This document shows positions 10,390 to 25,451 of a stretch of 28,827 nt of DNA, piece by piece. A model generated the notes under the pieces. That model did not search any database, had not been told where the DNA came from, and saw only the letters and a program-made list of their open reading frames with translations. Positions within the stretch are counted from its first letter, which is position 1, and each line of letters opens with the position of its first letter. The stretch is from an uncultured Candidatus Saccharibacteria bacterium (lineage in GTDB: Bacteria; Patescibacteriota; Saccharimonadia; Saccharimonadales; UBA4665): positions 1 through 28,827 of the forward strand of contig CAYVOS010000001.1 in assembly GCA_964453515.1 (NCBI GenBank). The letters are read 5' to 3'. The position numbers and the translations under genes are program-made.

Positions 10390-11421
10390 TTATGCCCACT
10401 GCTCTAGAAATTGTTTCTCAGATTTCTTTACAAATGCCGGCGTTCCCAGCAGGGCGTGCTGCGAAAGATCAGGCGAATATTTGCTTGCCGGCGTCACTCG
10501 CCCAAACGCTTCTGCAACCGCTCGTATATGATGCGGCGCTGCACCGCAGCAAAGTCCGATGTAGTTTATGCCAAGATCATTCGCTTGTTTCGCAAATACA
10601 GCCGTTTCATGCCGAGTACACAAGAATCGATCCAACCCCAACGTGTAAGCACTTTGGCCGTTTTCGTCCTTCAGGAATTGAAAAGATGGTTGTTGGGGTG
10701 TTGTATGATATGGTACTGGTATGGCAGCAATGGGACCGTCGACGGCATCACGAAGGGCACGGACGAGCGGCAGAAGCGTTTCCGGGCCCCGCCCGCAATT
10801 GAAGCCTACGACATCGGCACCATTATCTCTGAGTATTTTACAGGCTTTGATCCAATCGTATCCGTCTTTACTCTTCTCGTAGATCGGGGTGAAATTAATG
10901 ACCGCTGGCAAGTTATGTTGCTTTATGACTTCCAGCGCGATCAAAGCTTCGTCGAGATACTCAATGGTTTCCGCGAGTATGAAGTCCACACCAGCCTCAT
11001 TCGCCCATGCAACTTGCTCGGTATACTGTTTGCGCACTTCACGGGCACTTTTGTACTTGTTTGCGAGGTCGTAAGCCCAAGTATTACAAATATTACCCGC
11101 CACAAGTGATCCATGTTTTTTGCCCACCCTTGTGGCAATTTGGAGAGCACTCCGATTCATGCGTTCCAACTCGCCTTCCCTGCCAATCGCCTTTAGTTTT
11201 TCTCTATGCGCGTAATAGGTTAAGGCCACTACAATATCGCTACCGGCGCGTACGAATTCTTCATGCAGTTGCAAGACCGCTTCAGGGTGATCAACAACCA
11301 CCTCCGGAACATACGCACCAGCCTTAATATAGCCACGGCGCTCCAATTCAAAGATATAGCCTTCCGCACATAAGACTGGTCCGTTTTGTAATTTTTCTAG
11401 GAGCCCAACGTTCGAACCCAT
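10390..11421 (-). CDS. Homocysteine S-methyltransferase family protein, betaine-homocysteine methyltransferase (BHMT)-like
   Basis: ELERRGYIKAGAYVPEVVVDHPEAVLQLHEEFVRAGSD resembles the BHMT N-terminus. Zn-binding cysteines in GFNC and GLCCG; 343 aa. Preceded by a SAM riboswitch. Confidence 0.88.
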   Translation of the reverse strand: MGSNVGLLEKLQNGPVLCAEGYIFELERRGYIKAGAYVPEVVVDHPEAVLQLHEEFVRAGSDIVVALTYYAHREKLKAIGREGELERMNRSALQIATRVGKKHGSLVAGNICNTWAYDLANKYKSAREVRKQYTEQVAWANEAGVDFILAETIEYLDEALIALEVIKQHNLPAVINFTPIYEKSKDGYDWIKACKILRDNGADVVGFNCGRGPETLLPLVRALRDAVDGPIAAIPVPYHTTPQQPSFQFLKDENGQSAYTLGLDRFLCTRHETAVFAKQANDLGINYIGLCCGAAPHHIRAVAEAFGRVTPASKYSPDLSQHALLGTPAFVKKSEKQFLEQWA

Positions 11422-11648: not shown

Positions 11649-12869
11649 CTAATTATCCAGCGCCTGGACGTAAGCATCAATCTGTGTGTAATCATTAATG
11701 CCTGTCGCAGGGATGAGAGCATCTTCTCTGGATGGCGTGTAGTAGTTAGTGAGTAAATCGACACCCTTTTGGCCATTGTAATTGGCTTGATTTAGGCTGG
11801 CTGACTGGATGCTCGCTGCCGGGATTTTCTTCATGATGGTGTAGAGACGTCGTACATTACCAAGCGATAAATCTGTCTGGACATTATTGCCCATGGTGTC
11901 AAAGAGCTTTCCCATCCGTATAGGATTCGCAATAACACCGAGCGTCATCGCCTTCCTCTCTAAGGCAACTAGCATCATGCGCTGGTCGGCTGTTCGCTGG
12001 AAGTCATATTGTTCGAATCCGATTGGTACGCCGTACTGCGAGGGATCACCACGAGCCCGTGCCAAGTCTAACGCCTGCTCGCCATTTAAGGTGTGGCCCC
12101 CGTTTGTCAAATTAACCAGCGGCCCGCCCGTCACAAAATCGCGGTTCGGGTCATACAGTTCACCGTCGGGGCTATTGATCGTTACCGTAATGCCACCAAC
12201 CGCGTTAACTGCATCCCGTACAGCAGCATAATTAATGAGTGCATAGTAATCGATCAGGACACCAAATTTCTGCGATATCACTTCTTCGAGCAAGCCCATG
12301 CCCCCGGCTGCATAGCCCGGCTGGCTAAAGTTCTCTGACTGGCCGTCAGGGTAAGCTTCGTTGATCTTGGCATAGCCAAAACCTGGAATATGCACATACA
12401 GGTCACGCGGAATACTCAACATATACGCCGTGTGGTTTTTGGTATTAATACTGACCAGCATAATGGAGTCAGTTAAGCTGGCCCCCTGGTGTCCGGGATC
12501 ATCGGCTGAGTTGCCGGCAATTAAGATATTTACCCGCCCGGTGTTCTCTCCTTTCAGATGCGTCGGAAAGAATAAGCTGAACAACCCACCCCAACCGAAG
12601 ACCCGCACGGCATTATCCGCGAACTCATAGCCAACCCAACCGCCATAACCCATGCCGGCAACCAGAAGCAATATGAGAATCGATATAATCGATTTCCGAA
12701 TCTTATGCATTTTCGGCCGTTCTTCGGGAATTTGCTGTTGCATGAGCTGCCGTGACCGCATTCGCCGTGTAGGCGCACCGGAAAACAGCGGATTTGGTAA
12801 CGAACGATGCAGTTCGTAGGGGCTGATATCCGCTTGGACGTATTGTTTGGTAGCTTTAGATTTTCGCAT
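11649..12869 (-). CDS. LytR-CpsA-Psr (LCP) family glycopolymer transferase
   Basis: Single N-terminal TM helix, then NILIAG..D, TDSIMLVSI, SIPRDL, KINEAY, L.LARAR, DFQRTADQR. Confidence 0.9.
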   Translation of the reverse strand: MRKSKATKQYVQADISPYELHRSLPNPLFSGAPTRRMRSRQLMQQQIPEERPKMHKIRKSIISILILLLVAGMGYGGWVGYEFADNAVRVFGWGGLFSLFFPTHLKGENTGRVNILIAGNSADDPGHQGASLTDSIMLVSINTKNHTAYMLSIPRDLYVHIPGFGYAKINEAYPDGQSENFSQPGYAAGGMGLLEEVISQKFGVLIDYYALINYAAVRDAVNAVGGITVTINSPDGELYDPNRDFVTGGPLVNLTNGGHTLNGEQALDLARARGDPSQYGVPIGFEQYDFQRTADQRMMLVALERKAMTLGVIANPIRMGKLFDTMGNNVQTDLSLGNVRRLYTIMKKIPAASIQSASLNQANYNGQKGVDLLTNYYTPSREDALIPATGINDYTQIDAYVQALDN

Positions 12870-12950: not shown

Positions 12951-12986
12951 TAAAAAGCTCAAGGGGTTACTTCCTTGAGCTTTTTA
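12951..12986. terminator. Bidirectional intrinsic terminator
   Basis: Perfect 14-bp inverted repeat TAAAAAGCTCAAGG / CCTTGAGCTTTTTA with an 8-nt loop; T5 tract on both strands. Confidence 0.8.
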
Positions 12987-13253: not shown

Positions 13254-13361
13254 TTAGCTATGCATGATATACACGATGGCCAGTAAGATAATCGCGCAAA
13301 TGACCACTACGAGTGCTTCTAGCGCTGTGAAGCCCGCTTCCTGTTTTGATAGTTGCCGCAT
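13254..13361 (-). CDS. 35-aa type IV prepilin-like micro-protein (class III signal peptide only)
   Basis: MRQLSKQEAG/FTALEALVVVICAIILLAIVYIMHS*: polar leader, G-1, F+1, E+5 and a 20-residue hydrophobic helix. AAGGGTGG lies 9 nt upstream. Below the ORF-track cutoff. Confidence 0.65.
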   Translation of the reverse strand: MRQLSKQEAGFTALEALVVVICAIILLAIVYIMHS

Positions 13362-13479: not shown

Positions 13480-14337
13480 ATGAAACTTAAGAGCCCGGTT
13501 GTTACGAGCCTGCTTCGTTTTCGCCTACCGCAAACAAAAGTTTGGTTACTGTCACTGTCATTCGCAGGACTGCTTTTTCCCGCTACCGCTTCAGCCGTCA
13601 GCGTGATCTCCCAAGGCTTTACGACCACCGACGCTGTGCGTATCGGTTCAATCGTCAGTCTCTTGGATAACTCGTCCGACAAAGTACAAGCGACCAATAC
13701 GAGTAACGTAACAAATATGCTCGGCGTCGTGATTGACAACAGTGACACCCTCATTACACTCGATAGCAGCAAATCCAACCAGGTGCAGGTTGCAACCAGC
13801 GGCATCGTCGAAGCGTTGGTATCAAATATTAATGGCACCATTGCCCAGAACGATGAGATTACCGGTTCGCCAATAGCCGGCGTTGGTATGAAGGCCACCG
13901 ACAATGCGCGAGTCGTTGGCGTCGCGCAGGAGGCACTTAACAGTACCGACGGCACAACACAAACTTACAAAGACAGCCATGGACAGACACACAATGTCCT
14001 GATAGGTGAAATCCCCATTCAGGTTAATGTCGCCTACTACTTCAAGCAACCCTCAAAGACCATTATCCCGTCAGCCGTGCAGTATATCGCGAATGCGCTC
14101 GCAGGAAAAACAGTCAGTCCGGTGCCGATTTTAGTTAGTATCGCAATTTTTATCATTACGCTTATCGTTGTTGTTAGTATAATCTACTCAATGATACGTA
14201 GCAGTATTATTTCGGTGGGGCGAAACCCCATGGCGCAAAGCGCTATCTACCGAGGCATCGTACAGATGTCGGTATTGGTACTTGGCATTTTGTCCGTTGG
14301 ATTGGTTTCTATATATTTAGTACTGACGAAGTTATAG
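13480..14337 (+). CDS. Membrane protein: signal peptide, beta-rich domain and a C-terminal ATP-synthase c-subunit-like hairpin with no ion-binding carboxylate
   Basis: Ala-x-Ala signal (TASA), beta-rich middle (GVV..VQVATSG.V...NG.I...D.ITGSP.AGVGMKA..VVGVA), then TM-GRNPMAQSAI-TM (RNP at 14221-14229). No Asp or Glu in the hairpin. Occupies the atpE position of the operon. Confidence 0.7.
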   Translation: MKLKSPVVTSLLRFRLPQTKVWLLSLSFAGLLFPATASAVSVISQGFTTTDAVRIGSIVSLLDNSSDKVQATNTSNVTNMLGVVIDNSDTLITLDSSKSNQVQVATSGIVEALVSNINGTIAQNDEITGSPIAGVGMKATDNARVVGVAQEALNSTDGTTQTYKDSHGQTHNVLIGEIPIQVNVAYYFKQPSKTIIPSAVQYIANALAGKTVSPVPILVSIAIFIITLIVVVSIIYSMIRSSIISVGRNPMAQSAIYRGIVQMSVLVLGILSVGLVSIYLVLTKL

Positions 14338-14351
14338 GTGAGGTATAGCAC

Positions 14352-14957
14352 ATGCTTGAAGTTCTTCTAATTATCACATGTATCGCCATCGGCGCCCTGG
14401 CTGTCATTGCTGCGCAACATGCACTGGCACATTTCCGCCCTCAGCAGCACGATGCCGAGCACACACACGCACACACCGCACCACAAGGTGGCCATTTGCC
14501 GCCAGCCGTTCGCGAGCAGTTACTGGCAGATGCAAAAAAGGACTTTGAACGAGTGTTACGCCAATCTGCGCTTGAACTGTCACAGGATCTGCAAAGCACT
14601 GCCACCGAGATTAAGCAGAAGGTGCAGGAACTTGGTACCGATGCAGTAGCTAAAGAACTTGAGAATTACCGAGCCAAAATAGCAGAGCTGCAACAGCAGA
14701 CCGAAACGACGGTTGACACGATGCACCAGGAGATTACGGGCCATCAGGAGAACCTAAAGGCCAAGATGGCCGAAGCCGTAGAGGCCGAGAAACAACACAT
14801 GATTGAGCAAATGGACACAAAGCTGGCCGACGCCGTCACCTCCTTCTTAACGGAAACCCTGCAGCATGACGTTGATCTCGGTGCGCAAACAACGTATATA
14901 ACCAAAATGCTGGATGAGCACAAAGCCGAGCTGGCTAAAGGAGTCACCGGTGATTAA
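14352..14957 (+). CDS. Peripheral-stalk (subunit b-like) protein
   Basis: N-terminal TM helix, His-rich linker, long A/E/K/Q-rich helical coiled-coil; atpF position; GAGGT SD. Confidence 0.55.
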   Translation: MLEVLLIITCIAIGALAVIAAQHALAHFRPQQHDAEHTHAHTAPQGGHLPPAVREQLLADAKKDFERVLRQSALELSQDLQSTATEIKQKVQELGTDAVAKELENYRAKIAELQQQTETTVDTMHQEITGHQENLKAKMAEAVEAEKQHMIEQMDTKLADAVTSFLTETLQHDVDLGAQTTYITKMLDEHKAELAKGVTGD

Positions 14958-15438
14958 GTTTAAGCTTGACGAAAGCATCTCATCCTTGCAGGATCTGCGA
15001 GGTTTAGTGTTAGAGATTCACGAATACCAGCGCTGGTTTTCGCATAATGCCATTAAGAAAAAAATTCACATCCCCAGCAAATCCAAACCACCCGAGCTCT
15101 CCCCAGCAGCAAAGTCAGTCTTACGCGAATGGTGCGCAGGAAAAGATTTGACCATTAAAATGCTGGATGAATTGATTAAGACTCTCGAAGCATACGGGCG
15201 TAATGCACCGTCTATGTCCATTACCCTTGCAGCGTTGCCGAGCTCAGGTATGAAGAAAATACTCGTCGGCTGGTGCAGAGACAACATATCTCCGAACGTT
15301 ATGGTAGATTTTCAGTTTAACTCTACACTGCTAGGTGGTTTAGTTGTGAGAAGCGGTAGCCACATCTTTGATTGGTCGTTCCGTCGCCAAATCTTGGCAG
15401 AACGAAACAAGTTCCCGGAGGTGTTGCGTCGTGTTTGA
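14950..15438 (+). CDS. F1 subunit delta/OSCP-like protein
   Basis: C-terminal VDFQFNSTLLGGLVVRSGSHIFDWSFRRQI matches the delta C-terminal motif. Start GTG 14950 chosen for the AAAGGAG SD (track start 14914). The N-terminal half is divergent. Confidence 0.75.
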   Translation: MIKFKLDESISSLQDLRGLVLEIHEYQRWFSHNAIKKKIHIPSKSKPPELSPAAKSVLREWCAGKDLTIKMLDELIKTLEAYGRNAPSMSITLAALPSSGMKKILVGWCRDNISPNVMVDFQFNSTLLGGLVVRSGSHIFDWSFRRQILAERNKFPEVLRRV

Positions 15439-17053
15439 TAACCAAAAATTTCAGCAGCTCGTCGAAAAAGACAATCTAACCGGTAATGTCGTATCTACCA
15501 ATAGTTTTATTGTGGAAGTAAAGGGGCTAGAAGGAGTACGAATCGGCTCAAAATTTCTATTTGAAGACGGCCAACTCGGGCTGGTCCGTGAAGCGTATGG
15601 TGATCGCGTCATTCTTTTTAACATCGATACCGAACGTATTCAGCCGGGCACACTCGCCGTTGTAGAAGACGATATGCTCAGCGTACCCGTTGGTAAGGGT
15701 CTAGTCGGGCGCGTCGTAACCCCCCTGGGCGTTCCACTTGACGGCAAGGGCGCTGTTCACGCGACAGAAAAATCGGGAATTTTTAACCCAGCTCCCGGGA
15801 TTATGGCCCGGAATGTGTTGAATGAGCAGCTGGAAAGTGGCGTCACCGCTGTCGATATGTTTTTCCCGGTCGTACTTGGTCAACGTATCGCCATCCTGGG
15901 TGATAGTAAAGCCGGTAAGAGTACCTTCTTGAGCCAATTATCCGCTTCACAGGAAGGGAAAGATCGTGTCGTCGTCTATGTCCTCATTGGCAAGCGTAAA
16001 GTCGATGTCGAGCGGCTATTGTCCGGGCTGCGCGGCTCCGGCGCTATCGAACACACCATCGTCGTACAAGCTGATATCTTCGATTCCTTGACTCAATCCT
16101 ACCTTGCCCCATACGCTGCCTGCGCTATGGCTGAGTACCTATGGTACAAAGGCCAGGACGTTATTATTATATACGACGATCTTTCCAGCCACGCTGAAGC
16201 ATACCGGCAACTTTCATTGTTGCAGGAAATTGACCCAGGTCGTGACTCATATCCAGGTGACATGTTCTACGCACACTCAAGCCTTTTGGAACGTGCCGGC
16301 AAACTAAAGACAAACAATAAGACGCTTACCTCTTTGCCGGTCGTGCTAACCCCCAACGATGACGTTACCGCCTTCCTGCCAACCACCATTATGTCCATTA
16401 CCGATGGTCAAATTATCTTCGATCTTGGGCTCTTCCGCTCCGGCATCCGTCCCGCGGTTAACGCTGGTCTTTCAGTTTCTCGTGTTGGTGGTCAGGCGCA
16501 AACCAAGCGGCAAAAGCAGCTAACGAGCGGCCTCTTCCAACGACTGGCAAATTTCCACCAGGCGGAGGAGTTTTCGCACTTCGGTTCAAGTCTTTCTAAG
16601 GATGCCACTATTGATTTAAAGCTCGGGCGGCAGATTTATGACGCGCTATCGCAAACACCCGAACAACTGCTGAGTTTGTCTCAGCAGCAACTCCTCGCTG
16701 AAACAATCCTCTTGGGTAAGGGTGAGGCAGTAATAGATATGCCCGGCCTCAAAGAAGCAGTTAAAAAAGAGGCCAAGGTCATTAAAGAGGAAAAAGATTA
16801 TGACCGCATTGAAGCACAGCTGTTTAAGAAGTTCTGTAAGATGCCGCCAACCGGTGAGAAATTAGGTGATAAACCTGTCGGGAATGAACCACCCACGGCA
16901 GGCGAACCCACTGACCAGAAACCATCCGATACTAAAGATGCGGGGGATGGTGAAAAACCTTCTGAGACCACAGAAGAAAAACCTGCAGAGCCCAAGGATG
17001 CAACGCCGGATAAAAAGTCTGCGGAGAAGGAGAAGGCTCATGCGTCGTCCTAG
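15431..17053 (+). CDS. atpA: F1-type ATPase subunit alpha, divergent
   Basis: GRVVTPLG.PLDG, SGVTAVD, GQRIAILGDSKAGKS, YDDLS.HA.AYRQLSLL..PGR..YPGD.FY.HS.LLERA, SITDGQI, GIRPAVNAGLSVSRVGG. Start GTG 15431 with GGAGGT SD (track start 15368). About 70-aa acidic/Pro-rich tail. Confidence 0.92.
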   Translation: MFDNQKFQQLVEKDNLTGNVVSTNSFIVEVKGLEGVRIGSKFLFEDGQLGLVREAYGDRVILFNIDTERIQPGTLAVVEDDMLSVPVGKGLVGRVVTPLGVPLDGKGAVHATEKSGIFNPAPGIMARNVLNEQLESGVTAVDMFFPVVLGQRIAILGDSKAGKSTFLSQLSASQEGKDRVVVYVLIGKRKVDVERLLSGLRGSGAIEHTIVVQADIFDSLTQSYLAPYAACAMAEYLWYKGQDVIIIYDDLSSHAEAYRQLSLLQEIDPGRDSYPGDMFYAHSSLLERAGKLKTNNKTLTSLPVVLTPNDDVTAFLPTTIMSITDGQIIFDLGLFRSGIRPAVNAGLSVSRVGGQAQTKRQKQLTSGLFQRLANFHQAEEFSHFGSSLSKDATIDLKLGRQIYDALSQTPEQLLSLSQQQLLAETILLGKGEAVIDMPGLKEAVKKEAKVIKEEKDYDRIEAQLFKKFCKMPPTGEKLGDKPVGNEPPTAGEPTDQKPSDTKDAGDGEKPSETTEEKPAEPKDATPDKKSAEKEKAHASS

Positions 17054-17900
17054 CCAAATTGAAAAAGATGCGATGCAGATCACTACGGTAGAGGATTTGA
17101 CGGGGGTATTTGAAAGTATCGCAAGTACGCAGGTTGCCAAAGTGAAAGGCAAGGTGGAACTGTCCAAGCAATTCTTTCAGCTACTCTGGAAACGCTATAC
17201 ATCAATCCGTATTGACCCGAGTATGCGTATTACCAACCGTGATCTTGGTGAAGGATCAAACAAAACGATGTTTATCATTATCTCAGCAGAAGCAGGTCTG
17301 TCTGGTGATATTGACCAGCGTTTGATTGAGTCGATGCTGCAAGCATATGATCCCAAAACCACTGATATTATTGTTCTCGGCACCCACGGCGCCACTCAAT
17401 TACGCCAGCGCAGCATCCCGTATGTAAAGTTCTTCCAGGTGCCAGAGACCGACCGCTACATCGACGTAAGCCCGGTCATCAATTCGGCTAAAGGTTACAC
17501 CAGCATCATTGTCTATTACGAAGAGTACGTATCCCTTGGAGTCCAGGAAATTAAAACGATCGACCTAGTCGCCAGTATGCGTGAAATGAGTGAAGACGCT
17601 GAGGAAGATACGATGACTGCTGAGGACACAATTTTCGAGCCTTCTCTGGATCTGATTGCAGACGAAATGGAGCTTACTATGATGACACTCGCGCTGAGTC
17701 AGTCAATTTTGGAATCAGGACTGGCCCAGGCAGCTAGTCGATTTAACGCTATGGCTGTCGCAAAAAAACGGGCAGGCGAACTACTGGGAGATTACGAAAT
17801 GGAATATCACCGCGCAAAACGCTCTGAAAGCGACCGTCGCCTTCGCGAAGTTATGGTGAGTATTAAGAAGAAAAAACAACACGCGAGGGCCAACTCATGA
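17040..17900 (+). CDS. atpG: F1-type ATPase subunit gamma, divergent
   Basis: IT.VEDLT.VFE.IA, IIISAEAGLSG, ASRF.AM..A..RA.EL...Y...Y.RA; position between alpha and beta. Start ATG 17040 with AAGGAG SD (track start 16866). Confidence 0.85.
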   Translation: MRRPSQIEKDAMQITTVEDLTGVFESIASTQVAKVKGKVELSKQFFQLLWKRYTSIRIDPSMRITNRDLGEGSNKTMFIIISAEAGLSGDIDQRLIESMLQAYDPKTTDIIVLGTHGATQLRQRSIPYVKFFQVPETDRYIDVSPVINSAKGYTSIIVYYEEYVSLGVQEIKTIDLVASMREMSEDAEEDTMTAEDTIFEPSLDLIADEMELTMMTLALSQSILESGLAQAASRFNAMAVAKKRAGELLGDYEMEYHRAKRSESDRRLREVMVSIKKKKQHARANS

Positions 17901-19432
17901 GTATCAAATCACATCTGCACCACCGATCAAAGCCGACAACGAAACCTAGCACAGCATCTATTGGTTTCGCTAATGAGCACGTCGGTATTATTGCATCCCT
18001 GCGCGGCCTGATGGTGGAGGTACAAATCCTAGAGGCATGTCCAGAAGAAAAAGAACTCTTGATCGTCAATGAATACCCCGAGGTATTTTTAGAGGTCAGC
18101 TATTTCCGCGGCGATGCAGCCGTATGCATTAATCTCACGAACAACCAGATGCTCCGTTGTGGTCAAAAAGTTAGCCGCAGCCACCGTAAGGTATCGATCC
18201 CGGTAGGACAAAAGACGATGGGCCGAGTTTTCAATGCACTTGGGGAACCGCTTGACGAAGCACCCGCAGTCACCGATAATACCCGCCCAATTGCCGAGCC
18301 AACGGGAACAAAAAGCTACCGTAATAGCCAAAAACTTGAACTTCTGGAGACGGGACTTAAGGTTATTGACTTCCTAACCCCATTCGTGAAGGGTCGCAAG
18401 GTCGGTGTCATTGGCGGTGCCGGTGTTGGTAAAACAGTGCTTACTATGGAGATGATCCATAACGTCACTCGAAATAAAGACAGCCTCTCTATCTATTGCG
18501 GTGTCGGCGAACGTATCCGTGAGGGTAACGAGCTCTACGAAACCCTGAAAGACACCGACGTACTCAAAAACACAGTCATGTACTTCGGGCAAATGGACTC
18601 TACCGCCGCTATAAGATCTATGGTTGCCCCAGCAGCCGCTACCGCAGCAGAATATTTCCGGGATGAGGAAGGCCGGGATATTCTATTCTTCGTTGACAAC
18701 ATATACCGTCATATTCAAGCATTAACCGAACTTTCCACTAACTTAGGGCTGATTCCTTCGGAGGGTGGCTACTCGCCCCTGGTATTCTCTGAATTGCGTC
18801 GGCTGCAGGATCGGCTAAGCTCGACCGAGCATGGTACCGTTACTTCCGTGCAAGCCGTCTATGTTCCCGCCGACGACTTAACTGACCCGGCAGTGCAAGC
18901 TATTTCACAGCAGCTCGACTCGGTACTTGTGCTTTCACGTTCTATCGCAGAGCAGGGGATCCGACCTGCTGTCGATCTCTTGAAGACAACCTCTTCCCTT
19001 CTTACCCCGCAGATCGTTGGCCAACGTCACTATGAACTGGCAGGTCGCGTACAGGCCATCATGCAAAAATATGATTCACTGAAGAATATTATTGCCATCG
19101 TCGGTGAAAACGAACTTTCACCGGTTGACCGAGCCGACTACCAAAATGCTAAAAAACTGATTCAGTTCTTTAACCAAGATTTCTCAGTTGCCGAGAAGTT
19201 TAGTGGCCGGCCAGGCGAATACTACACGCTTGAACAAACACTGGATGGCATTGAAGCGATTATCGGTGTTAAAGCCGTAACTGATAGCTCTACTCCAGTC
19301 CCCGCAAAAGCAGATGTAGCTCCTCCTAAAGCAAAGCCGTCAGACACTTCACCGAAGCCGGTAGAAGACAAGACTAAAAGTGATAAAGAAGAGCACAAGC
19401 ACGGACTCTTAGATGCCTTCCACCACCACTAA
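17897..19432 (+). CDS. atpD: F1-type ATPase subunit beta, divergent
   Basis: GRVFNALGEPLD, ETGLKVID, Walker A GGAGVGKT, catalytic GVGERIREG, FVDNIYR, VQAVYVPADDLTDPA; ATGA overlap with gamma; low-complexity tail. Confidence 0.95.
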   Translation: MSIKSHLHHRSKPTTKPSTASIGFANEHVGIIASLRGLMVEVQILEACPEEKELLIVNEYPEVFLEVSYFRGDAAVCINLTNNQMLRCGQKVSRSHRKVSIPVGQKTMGRVFNALGEPLDEAPAVTDNTRPIAEPTGTKSYRNSQKLELLETGLKVIDFLTPFVKGRKVGVIGGAGVGKTVLTMEMIHNVTRNKDSLSIYCGVGERIREGNELYETLKDTDVLKNTVMYFGQMDSTAAIRSMVAPAAATAAEYFRDEEGRDILFFVDNIYRHIQALTELSTNLGLIPSEGGYSPLVFSELRRLQDRLSSTEHGTVTSVQAVYVPADDLTDPAVQAISQQLDSVLVLSRSIAEQGIRPAVDLLKTTSSLLTPQIVGQRHYELAGRVQAIMQKYDSLKNIIAIVGENELSPVDRADYQNAKKLIQFFNQDFSVAEKFSGRPGEYYTLEQTLDGIEAIIGVKAVTDSSTPVPAKADVAPPKAKPSDTSPKPVEDKTKSDKEEHKHGLLDAFHHH

Positions 19433-19682
19433 AATAGTACTTACGGTTATTGCAAGAGCACCTTTTCATGTCTATTACGAGGGTGAGGCTCTAGCAGTAT
19501 CGGCCACTAATGCCGTGGGGCCGTTCGATATCTTGCCAGGTCATGCCGACTTTTTCTCTATACTCGACCCTGGCAATGTTGCCATTCTGACTGACCCCAG
19601 TACGGAGCCAATGACCTTCGAAATAACTAACGGGATCGTTGCCGTTCGCAACGACGAAGTAATGCTCTTCATCAATATATAG
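19413..19682 (+). CDS. atpC: F1-type ATPase subunit epsilon, beta-sandwich domain only
   Basis: 89 aa; GPFDILPGHADF motif and ITNGIVAV..DEV; no C-terminal helical hairpin; last gene of the operon. Confidence 0.8.
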   Translation: MPSTTTKIVLTVIARAPFHVYYEGEALAVSATNAVGPFDILPGHADFFSILDPGNVAILTDPSTEPMTFEITNGIVAVRNDEVMLFINI

Positions 19683-19684
19683 AC

Positions 19685-20722
19685 TTACTGCTCAACAATG
19701 TAGTCAAATTCGTGACCGCCTTGAGTGATTGAACTTACGCCAATATCAAAGCCGCCTGTACTCGGGTCTACGTAAACGTTGTCAGCACCCGGTCCTACTG
19801 CTGTTACAACTACTTTGGGTATGTTGCTGTAACCGCTACGGAATGCCACATATGCCACCGTAGCACCCCCATTACAGCTAGAACCAGCCCCCACATTTAC
19901 ATCGACAGTACCTGCCGCATCGTTACCACTTATCGAAACGGTTCCATTCTGGCCTATACAGGATGAATTACCCGGCGAAACACCAGGAGCAGATCCCTGG
20001 GTAATCACGTGGCCGCCAAAGGTTAGGCCATAATCGGATACCAAACTACTCGTATGGAGACTCCCAACCGCCAACGTTCCGCCCACAGCTAGATTCCCCG
20101 ATATGTTTTCACCACCCTGCACCGTTAACAATTGCGAAAGTGTAGTTGGCCCCTGGAAATTGCTTGTGCCGGTAACTGTTAATTGACTTCTGACATTTAA
20201 ATTAGAAACTGTCCCGTTGCCATTTACGTTTAACTGTTGTAATGACGTATTGCCAGCTTGTAGTTGTGTAATATTTGCATTACTGACGGTTAATGCCTTA
20301 TTCAGGTTCAAAACTCCGCCCACACTTACATTGCCTGCTACCTGTAGGTCTCCGTTAAATATTGCGTTAGGGTTTACGGTTAACACTATGCCGGAATCGC
20401 CAACGGGATTTTGGTTCACGCCTATCTTATTCAAGGCCGCTTGGCTAATCGTAACCTGACCCTGCGCCTGCTGAATCTTCTTATCCTGTCCTTTAATAAT
20501 GAACGCGATGACAGCGACGTTCACGCCAAGAATTAAGATGACCACCGCAAGTCCGATAAAAGTAGCCCTATGGCTCGGGCGGTACGAACCACGTCGAATA
20601 CGCTTCGGTGAAGCCTCTCGTTTTGGCGTCGCATCTATCGCAGATGGATTTTTGGCCAATTCATCGCGTTTCGCGTTTAGCGATTCTGGTGCTGGCGCCT
20701 GATCTTTAGATGGATCGTCCAT
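19685..20722 (-). CDS. Membrane-anchored (N-in) beta-rich fibre/adhesin-like protein
   Basis: Charged N-terminus, one TM helix (TFIGLAVVILILGVNVAVIAFII), repeated L.V.G.. strands (GDLQVAGNVSVGG, GNLAVGGTLAVG), C-terminal domain with a Cys pair. Confidence 0.6.
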   Translation of the reverse strand: MDDPSKDQAPAPESLNAKRDELAKNPSAIDATPKREASPKRIRRGSYRPSHRATFIGLAVVILILGVNVAVIAFIIKGQDKKIQQAQGQVTISQAALNKIGVNQNPVGDSGIVLTVNPNAIFNGDLQVAGNVSVGGVLNLNKALTVSNANITQLQAGNTSLQQLNVNGNGTVSNLNVRSQLTVTGTSNFQGPTTLSQLLTVQGGENISGNLAVGGTLAVGSLHTSSLVSDYGLTFGGHVITQGSAPGVSPGNSSCIGQNGTVSISGNDAAGTVDVNVGAGSSCNGGATVAYVAFRSGYSNIPKVVVTAVGPGADNVYVDPSTGGFDIGVSSITQGGHEFDYIVEQ

Positions 20723-20779: not shown

Positions 20780-20850
20780 ATCTTTAGTCCTAATCGAATA
20801 TGAGCGTTAGCAATTTGCAAAATAAGCGTTTTTCGACAAGAATTATATGT

Positions 20851-21612
20851 ATGAAGCAGTGGCTTGGGAGACTAGTAGCCTTGTTCGTGGTATTTGCTGT
20901 AAGCAGTGGATTAATTATTGGTACCGCTTATGCTGATTCCTCATCGTCTGCTCACTATACTATACAAAACTCGGAGGTGGGCGGAGGTGGCATCGGCACA
21001 TCCAGTTCACCTAACTTCCAGTCAGTACTATCGACCGCCGACAATGCAGTCAGTAGTGGCAGCAGTGACCCCTCTTCAACCAATTATTCGGTAGCAGCCG
21101 GGTCGGTTACACCGCATACTCCGACCCTTTCAATTGCAATTCTGAACAGTAACACAACCTTTAACACCATGTTTAGCCCGACTACTACATCTACTGCCGC
21201 CGCACAGTTTTCTGTAGAAGACTACACAAGCTATGGCTATGTAGTGCAGATCGTTGGCAATACCCCCACCAACGGCTCCCATTCTATTCCTGCCATGAGC
21301 AACGGGAGTGGTGGCCCAACTACACCGTCAACCGGCTATGAACAATTTGGTATTAATCTTGTAGCCAACACATCGCCAAGCGTCGGCTCGAACCCGAGCT
21401 ATGGACAATTCGGCGCAACCACTGCCAAGCCAGAACCAAACTATGATACGGCGAATAATTTTCTTTACTCCAGCGGTGACTCGATTGCTTCATCACCAAA
21501 AAGCTCCGGACTAATCACATACACTATTAGCTATGTGGTTGATGTGAGCGACCTGACACCGGGGGGGCAGTACACCAGCAACCAGTCCATCATTTGTACC
21601 GGTACTTACTAG
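20851..21612 (+). CDS. Secreted WxL-like surface protein (short paralogue)
   Basis: Signal peptide ending TAYA; Ser/Thr-rich; shares FSP..., GY...., FG.NL and G.YT....IC..TY segments with the next two genes. Start 20851 preferred over track start 20800. Confidence 0.65.
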   Translation: MKQWLGRLVALFVVFAVSSGLIIGTAYADSSSSAHYTIQNSEVGGGGIGTSSSPNFQSVLSTADNAVSSGSSDPSSTNYSVAAGSVTPHTPTLSIAILNSNTTFNTMFSPTTTSTAAAQFSVEDYTSYGYVVQIVGNTPTNGSHSIPAMSNGSGGPTTPSTGYEQFGINLVANTSPSVGSNPSYGQFGATTAKPEPNYDTANNFLYSSGDSIASSPKSSGLITYTISYVVDVSDLTPGGQYTSNQSIICTGTY

Positions 21613-21684
21613 GGTTTAGATAGGTATAACAGGGCATGAGCTATGTTTTCAAAAATACCTGTGGATAACCGTTTTGATATACTG

Positions 21685-21714
21685 TTGACCGCACAATAAA
21701 GCTTGTGCTAAACT
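21685..21714 (+). promoter_or_regulatory. Probable promoter of the 21754 gene
   Basis: TTGACC-18 nt-TAAACT with TG extension, embedded in GCTTGTGCT. Confidence 0.55.
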
Positions 21715-21753
21715 TCGGTCAGTATCTAAAAAAATAAAGACTTAAAAATAAAA

Positions 21754-23070
21754 ATGGTTCGGAAAGTAAATATTAACAGATTCTTGAGCGGATTAGGCGC
21801 CTTGGTTTTAGTAATTGGCCTAGTAGCACAAGCAGTATTCCCTCAACTGGCACACGCGATACCTGCCCAGCAAATTACCAACCGTAGCCTTCTACTTGAA
21901 CCGGGCGCAACAGCCGGTGGTTCGCTGGCAGGCGGTACCGTAAACCATAAGTTTACTTTCACATTGAATGACACGACCGACAGCCTTGGCTCAATCGCCT
22001 TTCAGTACTGTACTACCGCTACGGCAGTTGCAGGCGGCATTGGATGCGTTGCACCAATAGGTGTTAGTACATCCGGTGTCACCCTTGGAGTGGTGTCTGG
22101 AGCTACCGGATGGGGTGCGCCGACCGCCGAAAAAGGATGGGATGATGCTGGCGATACAGTGTATAACGGTGTCTTACTTACGAGAACTGCAGCAGCTCTA
22201 GGTGCTGTGACTAACGTTACCATTGAACTTGATAACATAGTTAACCCAACCGCCGTAAACCAGACCTTCTTTGTACGAATCTGGACATTGACCGCAACAA
22301 CCGTTACTTATACCCCTGCGACCGGTGCGCCACTTATTGCCGCAGACACCAACGACGCTGGAACCGTTGCCGCCTCGACTGCATCTCCAATCCAACTCAC
22401 CGGGACGATGCCCGAATCACTCGTCTTTTGTACCGGTGCGACTATAGCCATCAGTACCACCACCACCTTGCCAGATTGCACAACAGCTACCAGCGGTAGC
22501 ATTAGCTTTAACCAGCTGTTTAGCCCTAACAGTACCTCATGGGCGACCTCGCAAATGGCCGCAAGTACGAACGCTGGTAAGGGGTACCAAATTACGCTCG
22601 CTGGGCAGACCATGAAATCGGGGACAAATTCAATTGCCGCCATTGGAGCGACCGCAACGAAGAGCATACCTGGGACTGCGCAGTTTGGCTTGAACTTAAT
22701 TGATGATAAAAACCCAACAGCCCCAATTGTAACTGACCCAACAATTGGTACCGGTTCAGCTAACCCCATTACCTACTGGAATGGAGACGCAGCCGGTACG
22801 GGTGGAGCTATCAATCCTGCTTCAAATGGCACCAGTTTCTACGCACTCCCCAACACTGGGTTCAATGGAGCTGGCGACCCCAACAACTATCCTACTTACT
22901 CGTTTAGCAGCACTGGGGTCAATACCGTAGCGGAGAGTAACTACGGCGGTACGCTCAGCCCAACGAACAGCCAACGGTATACTTCAACTTACATCGTTAA
23001 CGTCCCAGGTAACCAACCTGCCGGTACCTACACCACAACATTAACCTACATCTGTACGGCAACATATTAG
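21754..23070 (+). CDS. Secreted WxL-like surface protein, paralogue 1
   Basis: Signal peptide ending LAHA; Thr/Gly/Ala-rich beta protein; ends NQPAGTYTTTLTYICTATY, similar to the WxL G.Y...LTW.L terminal strand. Confidence 0.7.
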   Translation: MVRKVNINRFLSGLGALVLVIGLVAQAVFPQLAHAIPAQQITNRSLLLEPGATAGGSLAGGTVNHKFTFTLNDTTDSLGSIAFQYCTTATAVAGGIGCVAPIGVSTSGVTLGVVSGATGWGAPTAEKGWDDAGDTVYNGVLLTRTAAALGAVTNVTIELDNIVNPTAVNQTFFVRIWTLTATTVTYTPATGAPLIAADTNDAGTVAASTASPIQLTGTMPESLVFCTGATIAISTTTTLPDCTTATSGSISFNQLFSPNSTSWATSQMAASTNAGKGYQITLAGQTMKSGTNSIAAIGATATKSIPGTAQFGLNLIDDKNPTAPIVTDPTIGTGSANPITYWNGDAAGTGGAINPASNGTSFYALPNTGFNGAGDPNNYPTYSFSSTGVNTVAESNYGGTLSPTNSQRYTSTYIVNVPGNQPAGTYTTTLTYICTATY

Positions 23071-23104
23071 GAGAGATTTCCACAGCAACCTTACTGATAA
23101 TGCT

Positions 23105-23134
23105 TTGACGCGGGCTTTAAGCTCATGCTAATAT
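23105..23134 (+). promoter_or_regulatory. Probable promoter of the 23141 gene, possibly giving a leaderless transcript
   Basis: TTGACG-18 nt-TAATAT with TG extension, embedded in GCTCATGCT; the ATG follows 6 nt after the -10 and has no SD. Confidence 0.55.
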
Positions 23135-23140
23135 TCACGC

Positions 23141-24370
23141 ATGACTGTGAGTATGAAGCGTGCGCCTTTTTTGGTTGCAACTACTTCTTTGGTAGCAATA
23201 ACCCTGGTATTCTCACTGCTAGCTGGTATCGCCTATGCATCTGGTCAGATTACAAATCGTAGCCTTACCTTGCAAAACGGTGTCACAGATGGCGGTTCAA
23301 AACCAAGTGGTGTCGTTAAACACCTCTTTACATTCACCTTACCCGTTTCAGCCGCCGGACAATCAATTGTTTTTAAGTACTGCACCACGGCAGACATCGA
23401 CGCCGGCGGTACCTGTACTGCGCCACATGGCCTTGATACCGTGACAAGCACAACGCTGGGAGCTGCGACAGGTGATGCAACGGGAGCAACATTAGTAAAT
23501 ACGACTCAAGCTGCGCCACTTGTTAATCTGGGGACAGCCGTAACACCTGCTGGCACGACTGTGTCTACCGTTCAGCTAGCTAGCGTCAAGAACCCGGACG
23601 GCACTGACTGTACTACAACCACCAGCTGTACGTTCTATGTTAACATTCAGTTCTGGAGTGCAACCGGTGGCACCGGAACACTACTTTCTTCCGGTACTGT
23701 AGCGGCAACAGTCAACCCTCAAATAACGCTTACGGGGACGATGCCTGAATCACTCATCTTCTGTACTGGTGGCACCATTTCTAAGAATTCCAGTGGTATC
23801 CCAGACTGTACTACCGCTACAAGTGGTAGTGTCACATTCAATAAATTGTTCTCGCCAATAGGTACAGCCTTTGCAACCTCCCAATTAGCGGCCAGTACCA
23901 ACGCTACGCACGGTTACTCGATCACGGTCTCAGGACCACAACTTGCGAGCGGCACGAATTATATCCCCGGTGTCGGCGCCACGGCTAAGACCTCAACTAG
24001 TACTGTTGGTACAAGTGTCTTTGGTATGAATTTAGTCGCAGACACTGACGCCGCAGCTTCGACTCCAGCACTTTCACCTGCCAGCGCAAGTATTACACCC
24101 GTATCTGATGGTGTTAACTATTGGGGTATCGCACAAGCGAACTTTAACACGAGCAGTAGCTATGCATTCGCTGATTCTGGTCCTACCGGAGGCACACTTA
24201 CCCTCAACAATATTGCTGCCAGTGACTACGGCGCCAGCGGTCCGACCGGTACTAGTGAACCAACTGAAGGCCAGATATACACAGCAACCTACATGGTCAA
24301 CGCCGCTGCAAACCAGCCTGCCGGTACGTACACAACCACACTAACGTACATCTGTACGGCTACCTACTAG
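23141..24370 (+). CDS. Secreted WxL-like surface protein, paralogue 2
   Basis: Signal peptide ending IAYA; shares QITNRSL, H.FTFTL, YCTTA, LTGTMPESL.FCTG, PDCTTATSGS and an identical 19-aa C-terminus with paralogue 1. Confidence 0.7.
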   Translation: MTVSMKRAPFLVATTSLVAITLVFSLLAGIAYASGQITNRSLTLQNGVTDGGSKPSGVVKHLFTFTLPVSAAGQSIVFKYCTTADIDAGGTCTAPHGLDTVTSTTLGAATGDATGATLVNTTQAAPLVNLGTAVTPAGTTVSTVQLASVKNPDGTDCTTTTSCTFYVNIQFWSATGGTGTLLSSGTVAATVNPQITLTGTMPESLIFCTGGTISKNSSGIPDCTTATSGSVTFNKLFSPIGTAFATSQLAASTNATHGYSITVSGPQLASGTNYIPGVGATAKTSTSTVGTSVFGMNLVADTDAAASTPALSPASASITPVSDGVNYWGIAQANFNTSSSYAFADSGPTGGTLTLNNIAASDYGASGPTGTSEPTEGQIYTATYMVNAAANQPAGTYTTTLTYICTATY

Positions 24371-24373
24371 AGC

Positions 24374-25414
24374 ATGAAGAAATATCTATCATATATCTCG
24401 GTTGGTCTTAGTTTACTCATTTTTCTCGTGGGTACTGATGCTCCTGGAGTTGCTGCAATCGTGCAAACGGCTGCAGCTACAAAAGGTCTTACGGCTGGAC
24501 AGGCACTTGAGATTGCACCGCCACTCATCACGCTGACCGCCAACCCTGGGCAAGTAATTAATACCACTATCCAGTTGCGTAACATTACGAGAACTAATCT
24601 TGAAGTCACTAACGAAATAGATGATTTTGTAGCTGCCGGTGAAGGTGGTACTCCAAAAATTTTAACCGGAAATGACAGTAATAACCCCTTTCAGTTAAAA
24701 CAATGGATCTCTCCGCTTCCTGCGTTCACATTGACCCCGAACCAGATACAGATGCTTCCTGTAGTCATACGGGTACCGAAAAACGCCTCACCCGGTGGCC
24801 ACTACGGTGTTATCCGGTTCACCGGCGTACCACCACAGCTAAAAGGAACTGGGGTTTCCCTGTCGGCTAGTTTGGGATCCTTGGTTCTATTGACCGTTAA
24901 TGGCGACCTTAAGCATCAGTTGTCTGTGACTGATTTTGCAGTAAGTCAGGATAACAAAGTAGGTAAGCTGTTTCAGTCAACGCCGTTGACGTTCATTGTG
25001 AAGCTGAAAGACAGTGGCAACATACAGGAAGAACCGGAAGGACAAATTGTTGTAACGGACATGTTCGGTAGGGCGGTAGCTAGCTCCACCATTAACGTAC
25101 CTCCGCGGAATGTGTTACCGGACAGTACACGCATGTTTACGGGACCTCTTGACCATTCCAATCTCGGCAATAGACAATTATTTGGCCTTTACCATGCAAA
25201 ATTAACTGCAAGATATGGTGTCGGCAATGGCCTCACTACCACTGCTATGACGACATTTTGGGTTATACCGTACAAGTTAATTGCCATAGTCATCTTCCTG
25301 CTTATCCTAGCATTCTTTGTGATCAAGTTCATGCTCAAGCAATACAAGAAGAAGATTATTAAACAAACTACGGGTCGCTCAGCTAAACAGTCAACCAAAC
25401 GACGCCGCATGTAG
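24374..25414 (+). CDS. DUF916/DUF3324-like (WxL-interacting-type) membrane-anchored protein
   Basis: Signal peptide; IAPPLITLTANPGQ..I.LRN, VP.NASPGGHYG.IRF and SG N..EP.G..V.D.FG segments; C-terminal TM helix with a strongly basic tail; directly after the WxL-like genes. Confidence 0.65.
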   Translation: MKKYLSYISVGLSLLIFLVGTDAPGVAAIVQTAAATKGLTAGQALEIAPPLITLTANPGQVINTTIQLRNITRTNLEVTNEIDDFVAAGEGGTPKILTGNDSNNPFQLKQWISPLPAFTLTPNQIQMLPVVIRVPKNASPGGHYGVIRFTGVPPQLKGTGVSLSASLGSLVLLTVNGDLKHQLSVTDFAVSQDNKVGKLFQSTPLTFIVKLKDSGNIQEEPEGQIVVTDMFGRAVASSTINVPPRNVLPDSTRMFTGPLDHSNLGNRQLFGLYHAKLTARYGVGNGLTTTAMTTFWVIPYKLIAIVIFLLILAFFVIKFMLKQYKKKIIKQTTGRSAKQSTKRRRM

Positions 25415-25451
25415 TCCTAATCAAAGAGTATGTAGGTGGTACAATAAGCAT

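Follow-up and report, generated by a model that had tools for sequence, protein, structure and literature searches.

What can an F1-type ATPase do at a membrane when the genes around it supply neither a subunit a nor an ion-binding subunit c? This question is raised by a seven-gene F1-like ATPase cluster at positions 13480 to 19682 of a 28,827-nucleotide stretch of DNA (the window) from an uncultured Candidatus Saccharibacteria bacterium. The window is contig C1 (CAYVOS010000001.1) of a metagenome-assembled genome (MAG; GCA_964453515.1) of 0.99 Mb in 162 contigs, which is 84% complete. Its related loci and protein names point to Saccharibacteria, and its DNA occurs in mine-drainage metagenomes. 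By comparing the encoded proteins with those of canonical enzymes and of other Patescibacteria, we came to favor, with a confidence somewhat above even, the view that the cluster encodes an accessory, ion-blind, ATP-hydrolyzing F-type motor that acts on the cell surface and is not an ATP synthase, a judgment drawn from sequence comparison and predicted structure.

Subunits of the F1-like cluster

Seven plus-strand open reading frames (ORFs) fill the region: ORF1 (13480 to 14337; 285 amino acids, aa), followed by genes for a b-like peripheral-stalk subunit (14352 to 14957; 201 aa), a delta (OSCP)-like subunit (14914 to 15438; 174 aa), an alpha-like subunit (15431 to 17053; about 540 aa), a gamma-like central-stalk subunit (17073 to 17900; 275 aa), a beta-like catalytic subunit (17897 to 19432; 511 aa), and a short epsilon (19413 to 19682; 89 aa). 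The genes are tightly packed. Gaps of 14 nt and 19 nt separate ORF1 from the b-like gene and alpha from gamma, respectively; the b-like and delta genes overlap, as do delta and alpha (8 nt), gamma and beta (4 nt), and beta and epsilon (20 nt). This order, c-like through epsilon with tight junctions, had been reported in a preliminary description made from the sequence letters, and each frame was found where that description had placed it and was matched to its family. Two of its start codons were revised: the alpha frame is open from 15368, the TTG chosen earlier, and its most likely start is the GTG at 15431, which has GGAGG ahead and overlaps the delta stop, while gamma starts at ATG 17073 and not at 16866.

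The alpha and beta proteins match PF00006 with 222 and 218 bits, and both remain below the NCBIfam cut-offs for the ordinary subunits, alpha with 389 bits versus 484 on TIGR00962 (atpA) and beta with 453 bits versus 463 on TIGR01039 (atpD). Beta keeps the motifs GGAGVGKT, GERIREG, and DNIYR and has NELSPVD in place of the DELSEED loop; alpha keeps the P-loop GDSKAGKS with its lysine and the arginine finger SRVGG, so the catalytic residues listed in the preliminary description are present. The N-terminal helix of alpha is shorter than in Escherichia coli or in the canonical alpha of the same genome. Gamma matches PF00231 with 91 bits (cut-off 39.9) and scores 70 bits on TIGR01146, below its cut-off of 194. 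The epsilon match (PF02823, 41 bits over aa 16 to 84) covers the beta-sandwich domain only; the C-terminal helical, inhibitory domain is missing, and the genome's canonical epsilon is 144 aa long. In canonical F1 the helical domain of epsilon restrains hydrolysis, so a short epsilon without it fits a hydrolysis-only machine.

The peripheral-stalk subunits gave weaker family matches. Delta barely passes PF00213 (22.4 bits versus a cut-off of 22.3), and the b-like protein, in which one N-terminal transmembrane (TM) helix is followed by a His-rich stretch and then by a long helical part, has a weak PF00430 match (E = 0.0034). From 22 related clusters and 17 canonical operons, we took the two genes that precede alpha, built profiles, and aligned these with hhalign. 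The b-like profile aligned with canonical b at 87.7% (E = 3.4e-6) and the delta-like profile with canonical delta at 97.1% (E = 4.8e-11), and both cross-controls gave 0.1%. Taken together, the motif and profile comparisons show that the cluster encodes a catalytically intact alpha3beta3-type head, a central stalk of gamma and short epsilon, and a b/delta peripheral stalk.

Alpha and beta also carry low-complexity tails of 55 to 80 aa rich in K, E, P, T, and S (16810 to 17050 and 19270 to 19429). The alpha tail of about 80 aa is K/E/P-rich, and the K/P-rich beta tail ends in HHH; such tails are absent from canonical alpha and beta and present in the closest orthologue (L010).

The missing subunits were searched for in the genome. 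Pfam scanning found no subunit a gene (atpB, PF00119) in the cluster, as the preliminary description had stated, or in the rest of the window. The sole PF00119 match of the genome lies on contig C40, in a complete canonical operon with the order atpI-like, atpB, atpE, atpF, H, A, G, D, C. Its atpB scores 150 bits on PF00119, its atpE encodes 81 aa with the Glu, and its alpha and beta reach 714 and 795 bits on the NCBIfam equivalog models. The second, canonical operon that the preliminary description had proposed to look for is thus present, complete with its own F1 set. Because of this full set, the idea that the window holds one part of a split but ordinary operon fails, and we rejected it. 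It seems that the canonical F1Fo on C40 handles ion coupling separately.

ORF1, an exported domain on a c-like hairpin

ORF1 alone has no Pfam or NCBIfam match, and a scan of 23 relatives returned sub-threshold matches only, to phage XM1 gp53 and cement families. Its AF2 model, built on the alignment of these relatives (pLDDT 87), begins with a signal peptide (aa 1 to 39, ending in ASA), continues with an exported beta domain (aa ~42 to 187) and a short helix (198 to 208), and ends in a helical hairpin formed by helices 214 to 248 and 250 to 284 with the loop GRNP at 247 to 250. Aligned whole to whole with canonical c subunits, the hairpin scored 89.7% in hhalign (E = 1.9e-6, 65 columns), with RNP placed on RNP. 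R248, N249, and P250 are invariant across the 23 relatives, as RNP is in the canonical c alignment; the GRNP loop occurs in 264 of 269 ORF1 family members, and the loop of canonical c in Patescibacteria is nearly identical (..EAIGRNPEA..). In canonical enzymes, the R-N-P loop of subunit c is the docking site of gamma and epsilon.

The ion site itself is gone. All 19 canonical c subunits carry an acidic residue, at R+20 in 18 of them and at R+19 in this genome's own c, while none of the 269 ORF1 family members has a D or E anywhere from R+16 to R+25, R+20 included; the window's ORF1 has L at R+20. The absence of an ion-binding carboxylate, which the preliminary description had noted for this c-like protein, therefore extends to all 269 family members compared. 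The hairpin model superposes on solved c subunits over their full length with a root mean square deviation of 1.4 to 1.6 A for 69 to 71 residues; this superposition alone is weak evidence because helical hairpins are a common fold. The loop bears positive charges and so should face the cytoplasm, with both ends of the hairpin outside, and this predicted topology (N-terminus out, loop in) is that of subunit c. On these sequence alignments, we conclude that the hairpin is probably derived from subunit c, with the membrane carboxylate lost and the R-N-P loop kept. A predicted complex of gamma, epsilon, and four copies of the hairpin scored 0.12 against a mark of 0.34 and is evidence neither way.

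The external domain shares its fold with phage capsid decoration or cement proteins and with the C-terminal chaperone fragment of phi29 gp12, with Foldseek E values down to 4e-5 and VIA Z scores of 12.9 (3gqh), 11.9 (8qsy), and 10.4. This domain recurs within fibre-like and giant proteins of the phylum.

Distribution and phylogeny in Patescibacteria

A search of 401 Patescibacteria genomes with ORF1 gave matches in 110, among them about 47 full-length proteins of 250 to 350 aa; in the other matches, the external domain lies within proteins of 1,000 to more than 11,000 aa. In 13 of 20 fetched full-length loci, which span several classes, ORF1 stands directly upstream of the b-like, delta, alpha, gamma, beta, and epsilon genes. 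At E <= 1e-30, a profile of the ORF1 family retrieved 1,349 representatives from 1.84 billion proteins, and the Atlas clusters of the family are all labeled 'hypothetical' and belong mostly to Saccharimonadota.

PF00006 matches number four in most Saccharimonadia (canonical plus F1-like), six in this MAG, and two in many other lineages. In a group of 21 Saccharimonadia and close relatives, two alpha/beta sets occur in each of the 15 genomes with ORF1, and at most one in 7 of the 9 without it. Of the two exceptions, G010 has as its extra match a partial beta of canonical type, located where a contig ends, and G383 has a second set in an operon of another design, described below as type C.

Several families have alpha and beta of the low-scoring kind only. 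In five genomes that are 94 to 100% complete, one of them a single contig (G126, G352, G378, G274, and G026; loci such as L027, L028, L025, and L026), neither PF00119 nor PF00137 was found, and the ion-blind F1-like set is their only F-type set. The synteny survey suggested by the preliminary description thus found the cluster across the phylum and, in these genomes, as the sole representative of its kind. The beta of G352 (L027) reaches 488 bits on NCBIfam atpD, above the cut-off of 463, and would consequently be annotated as an ordinary ATP synthase subunit.

These genomes bear on another explanation, namely that the cluster is a divergent but ordinary ATP synthase or ion pump that borrows the canonical subunit a or uses an unrecognised ion path. 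The complete F-type gene order, the retained catalytic residues, the atpB encoded elsewhere in the genome, and the G352 beta score all speak for it. However, none of the 269 relatives retains a membrane carboxylate in helix 2, the five near-complete genomes with the cluster have neither atpB nor atpE, the window's alpha and beta miss the equivalog cut-offs, and epsilon lacks its regulatory domain. We regard this explanation as very unlikely.

To place the catalytic subunits, we built a beta tree from 21 F1-like betas, 15 canonical Patescibacteria betas, and the E. coli beta, with alpha as outgroup. All 21 F1-like betas, including that of the window, fall on one side of a single branch (support 87/88; recovered in 100% of 200 bootstrap trees), and the canonical Patescibacteria and E. 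coli betas lie outside this clade on short branches. The alpha tree is concordant, with an F1-like clade at 84/67 in 82% of bootstraps; both type C alphas group apart from it, in a starred clade that the tree does not place firmly. The separation of alpha and beta from the canonical Patescibacteria subunits, on which the preliminary description had made its proposal depend, is therefore seen in both trees. In Saccharimonadia the F1-like proteins split into two paralogous clades, type A with the window, L010, and L011, and type B with C78/C79, G063, G318, G087, G233, and G344.

The long branches in both trees indicate faster evolution, and together with scores below the family cut-offs they could point to a decaying, functionless duplicate of the atp operon. 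Against this stand the seven intact frames with their catalytic residues, an arrangement conserved across classes of the phylum, and the size of the ORF1 family at the stringent E value given above. We give decay almost no credence and rejected it on conservation.

The type B member of this MAG is a third F1-like cluster, spread over contigs C78 (L065:1044-4628) and C79 (L066:38-2490) and interrupted by a contig break in or after alpha. C78 carries a cysteine desulfurase gene, an ORF1 paralogue, b-like and delta-like genes, and an alpha gene that runs off the contig end; C79 carries gamma, beta, a 107-aa epsilon, and a convergent gene like the one that follows the window's cluster. Because a MAG can be chimeric, it is not certain that both paralogous clusters sit in one cell.

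A Pfam ATP-synt_C scan of 41 genomes revealed the type C arrangement. Two matches, of 26.5 and 28.9 bits, exceeded the cut-off of 24 bits. They lie at the C-terminal ends of two proteins, one of 2,424 aa in G005 and one of 629 aa, with a signal peptide, in G028. The G005 operon (L064) consists of the giant gene ending in the hairpin, a second giant, an ABC ATPase, an FtsX-like permease, b, delta, alpha, and gamma, within which the fetched locus ends. G383, which belongs to the window's own order, has the same operon (L091:7246-14952; L089), with a signal-peptide hairpin protein of 2,568 aa, and there it runs on through beta and an 85-aa epsilon. The type C hairpins also lack the carboxylate and keep more of the glycine-rich helix 1 than the short type does.

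Two further variations were observed. In G385 (contig C2, loci L023/L024), one F1-like cluster is flanked by two ORF1 paralogues, and genes for three further membrane or exported proteins separate the second of these from the b-like gene. Canonical c itself is duplicated in tandem in several Patescibacteria, where its gene, a frame of 160 to 200 aa, matches PF00137 twice and encodes a four-helix subunit (L041, L045, L050, L051, L056, L058, and L059, in G021, G035, G013, G022, G036, G008, and G002, respectively).

Surface neighbors, known relatives, and a possible motor

Several genes around the cluster encode putative surface proteins. X8, a convergent gene of 345 aa on the minus strand (19685 to 20722), has its stop codon 2 nt from that of epsilon. 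The protein has a charged N-terminus, one TM helix, and bactofilin-like beta-helical repeats, and judging from charge distribution only, the repeat region is probably outside the cell. Homologues of X8 occupy the same place after both paralogous cluster types (L010, L011, L019, and L066); at least 738 relatives were found, some with PF04519. In other classes, a single-pass fibre-like protein of 630 to 930 aa is encoded divergently from ORF1, and fibre-like membrane proteins are conserved neighbors of the cluster. Directly past X8, at positions 20800 to 28825 of the plus strand, lies a block of surface-protein genes. Its six genes share one orientation, and their exported products, from 270 to more than 759 aa long, have no Pfam match above the gathering cut-off; sub-threshold matches include a WxL-interacting peptidoglycan-binding domain, PKD, and Glucodextran_B.

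On the other side, where the preliminary description had placed small ORFs and a terminator in 600 nt, the 610 nt upstream of the cluster contain one prepilin-like small ORF of 35 codons on the minus strand and one hairpin at 12951 to 12986, and the entry is corrected accordingly. The small ORF (13254 to 13361) is divergent from ORF1, 118 nt upstream of it, and encodes a prepilin-type cleavage motif (..EAG/FTALE..), then one hydrophobic helix, then a stop. Farther upstream, also on the minus strand, are genes for a LytR-CpsA-Psr family protein (11649 to 12869; PF03816, 104 bits) and a homocysteine S-methyltransferase (10390 to 11421; PF02574, 147 bits).

Such neighbors suggest another possible use of the ATPase, in which the head would work like FliI/FliJ or another secretion ATPase to unfold, export, or assemble the fibre and giant proteins, with ORF1 as the dock or pore. 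The constant linkage of the cluster to exported fibre-like and giant proteins, the ABC ATPase and FtsX-like permease lying between the giants and the ATPase genes in G383 and G005, and the phage fibre chaperone/decoration fold of the ORF1 external domain are all in its favor. FliI-FliH-FliJ shares with the cluster a homologous P-loop catalytic fold, a stalk protein inside the hexamer, and a tie to surface appendages. However, FliI is a homohexamer without an alpha/beta pair, delta, b, epsilon, or a c-like partner, whereas the cluster encodes a heteromeric head together with both stalks (gamma, epsilon, delta, and b), arranged as in F-type operons, and the F1 models score about twice as high as the FliI/SctN models (453 versus 225 bits for beta). 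Moreover, ORF1 and the giant proteins have ordinary signal peptides, which suggests Sec export, and the lumen of a c-type ring is not known to pass proteins. We thus consider an export or assembly ATPase unlikely.

Compared with a canonical F1Fo operon (atpIBEFHAGDC), the cluster agrees in its set of subunits and in gene order from c to epsilon. Both have a heteromeric alpha/beta head equipped with the P-loop, the catalytic Glu-Arg, and the arginine finger, a b/delta peripheral stalk, and a c-type hairpin with the RNP loop in the same predicted topology. The cluster departs from such an operon, which exists beside it in this genome, in lacking subunit a, the ion-binding carboxylate, and the GxGxG motif, in the fusion of the hairpin to a signal peptide and an exported domain of ~150 aa, in the truncated epsilon and shortened N-terminal helix of alpha, and in alpha and beta sequences that score below the equivalog cut-offs and form a separate clade. 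N-ATPase operons (atpDCQRBEFAG) likewise coexist with a canonical one as a second F-type operon; in contrast, they retain subunit a together with a c ring that binds ions, mostly Na+, and have no separate delta. On the alt_F1F0 models, the window's beta scores 416 bits (TIGR03305, cut-off 752) and its alpha 337 (TIGR03324, cut-off 750).

The closest parallel comes from mycoplasmas, in which a Type 3 'F1-like X0' ATPase is required for MIB-MIP antibody cleavage (PMC12994834) and the Type 2 G1-ATPase drives the gliding of Mycoplasma mobile (PMC3369863, PMC8406192). There, too, a genome-reduced, host-dependent bacterium has an extra seven-gene F1-like cluster beside a genuine F1Fo, with alpha-, beta-, gamma-, and epsilon-like subunits and neither subunit a nor an ion-binding c. 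Like ORF1 here, one of the mycoplasma proteins begins with a signal peptide, has a large part outside the cell, and ends in two TM helices; the proposed role is to pass ATP energy through the membrane to surface proteins. The mycoplasma clusters, however, are ordered 12TM-small-gamma-epsilon-SP/2TM-alpha-beta and contain neither b nor delta (PMC12994834; PMC3369863); they have a 12-TM protein and a small cytoplasmic protein, whereas the present cluster follows the canonical order, includes b and delta, and encodes no polytopic protein. As for sequence, where the comparison with mycoplasma and N-ATPases rests on HMM scores, the window's alpha and beta reached 242, 378, 305, and 348 bits on the MSC_0618/0619 and MMOB1660/1670 models (cut-offs 520, 570, 600, and 850), below the canonical subunits of the same genome; the MAG's paralogue and a distant relative likewise miss these cut-offs. 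NCBIfam models detected no homology of ORF1 to mycoplasma proteins. We therefore regard the cluster as an analogue of the mycoplasma Type 2/3 systems and not a member: the likeness drawn in the preliminary description holds as an analogy, while HMM scores, gene order, and accessory subunits set the two apart. Our literature search found no paper describing this arrangement in Patescibacteria.

According to the above-described analysis, a surface-acting motor might work as follows. The ORF1 hairpins would form a rotor ring beneath gamma and epsilon, and ATP hydrolysis in beta would turn or strain this ring against the b/delta stator. Since there is no ion path, the energy would be spent as mechanical work on the external domains and on the fibre-like surface proteins whose genes lie alongside. 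Possible tasks are attachment, movement, or surface remodeling of an epibiotic cell. The non-bioenergetic motor of the preliminary description is accordingly retained in so far as the cluster is ion-blind and separate from the canonical enzyme; the turning of a ring and the surface task are steps that we infer.

Several points weigh against this motor. The ring and its contact with gamma and epsilon are postulated, and the hairpin fold is so common that a Z of about 10 does not settle the matter. The short type of ORF1 has no GxGxG packing motif of c helix 1, and not one of its 23 members passes Pfam ATP-synt_C (PF00137) alone. The stator has only one TM helix per b and no visible anchor against which torque could be reacted. 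The F1-like clade has moderate support and long branches, so a long-branch artefact may have joined its deep lineages. The sequencing runs that bear the locus are DNA only, from mine drainage and soil, with none from RNA. Finally, 7 of the 20 fetched loci hold a solitary ORF1 copy beside giant surface proteins without ATPase genes, and G063, G318, and G233 have an ATPase cluster of the C78/C79 type without an adjacent ORF1. Because of these last two observations, ORF1 may have a role apart from the ATPase.

The same two observations would favor a simpler arrangement, in which ORF1 is a mere neighbor or surface anchor and the F1-like head with b/delta is a membrane-tethered, ringless ATPase, for example, a regulatory or futile one. 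Yet ORF1 occupies the exact atpE position in 13 of 20 loci across classes, its gamma/epsilon-docking RNP loop is invariant despite the lost ion site, every sampled genome with a full-length ORF1 has an F1-like set, and the three genomes in question each retain one ORF1 elsewhere. A ringless ATPase therefore seems rather improbable to us.

A motor acting at the surface thus remains the explanation that we prefer, and it can be carried further, tentatively and with considerable doubt. In this broader form, Patescibacteria would possess a new class of rotary surface motor, with an F1 head, a hydrolysis-driven ring derived from subunit c, and subunits projecting outside the cell, by which epibionts would adhere to their hosts, move over them, or act on them mechanically. 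The projections would range from a crown of 150-aa domains to bundles of 2,500-aa fibres, and the class may share ancestry or logic with the gliding and antibody-release motors of mycoplasmas.

In summary, the cluster, with its surface-exposed, ion-blind putative rotor subunit, probably burns ATP for mechanical work at the cell surface. If this is true, rotary ATP synthases would have been converted into mechanical devices powered by ATP a second time, independently of the mycoplasmas, and since the rotor-derived subunit is here still recognizable and joined to surface domains, the idea that torque is passed outside the cell becomes testable. It also changes how 'ATP synthase' genes are read in Patescibacteria: some lineages have the ion-blind type only and one such beta passes the atpD cut-off, so metabolic reconstructions may credit them with a proton-coupled enzyme that they lack. 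Meanwhile, a large family of hypothetical proteins and many of the giant surface proteins of the phylum would be linked to an energy source.

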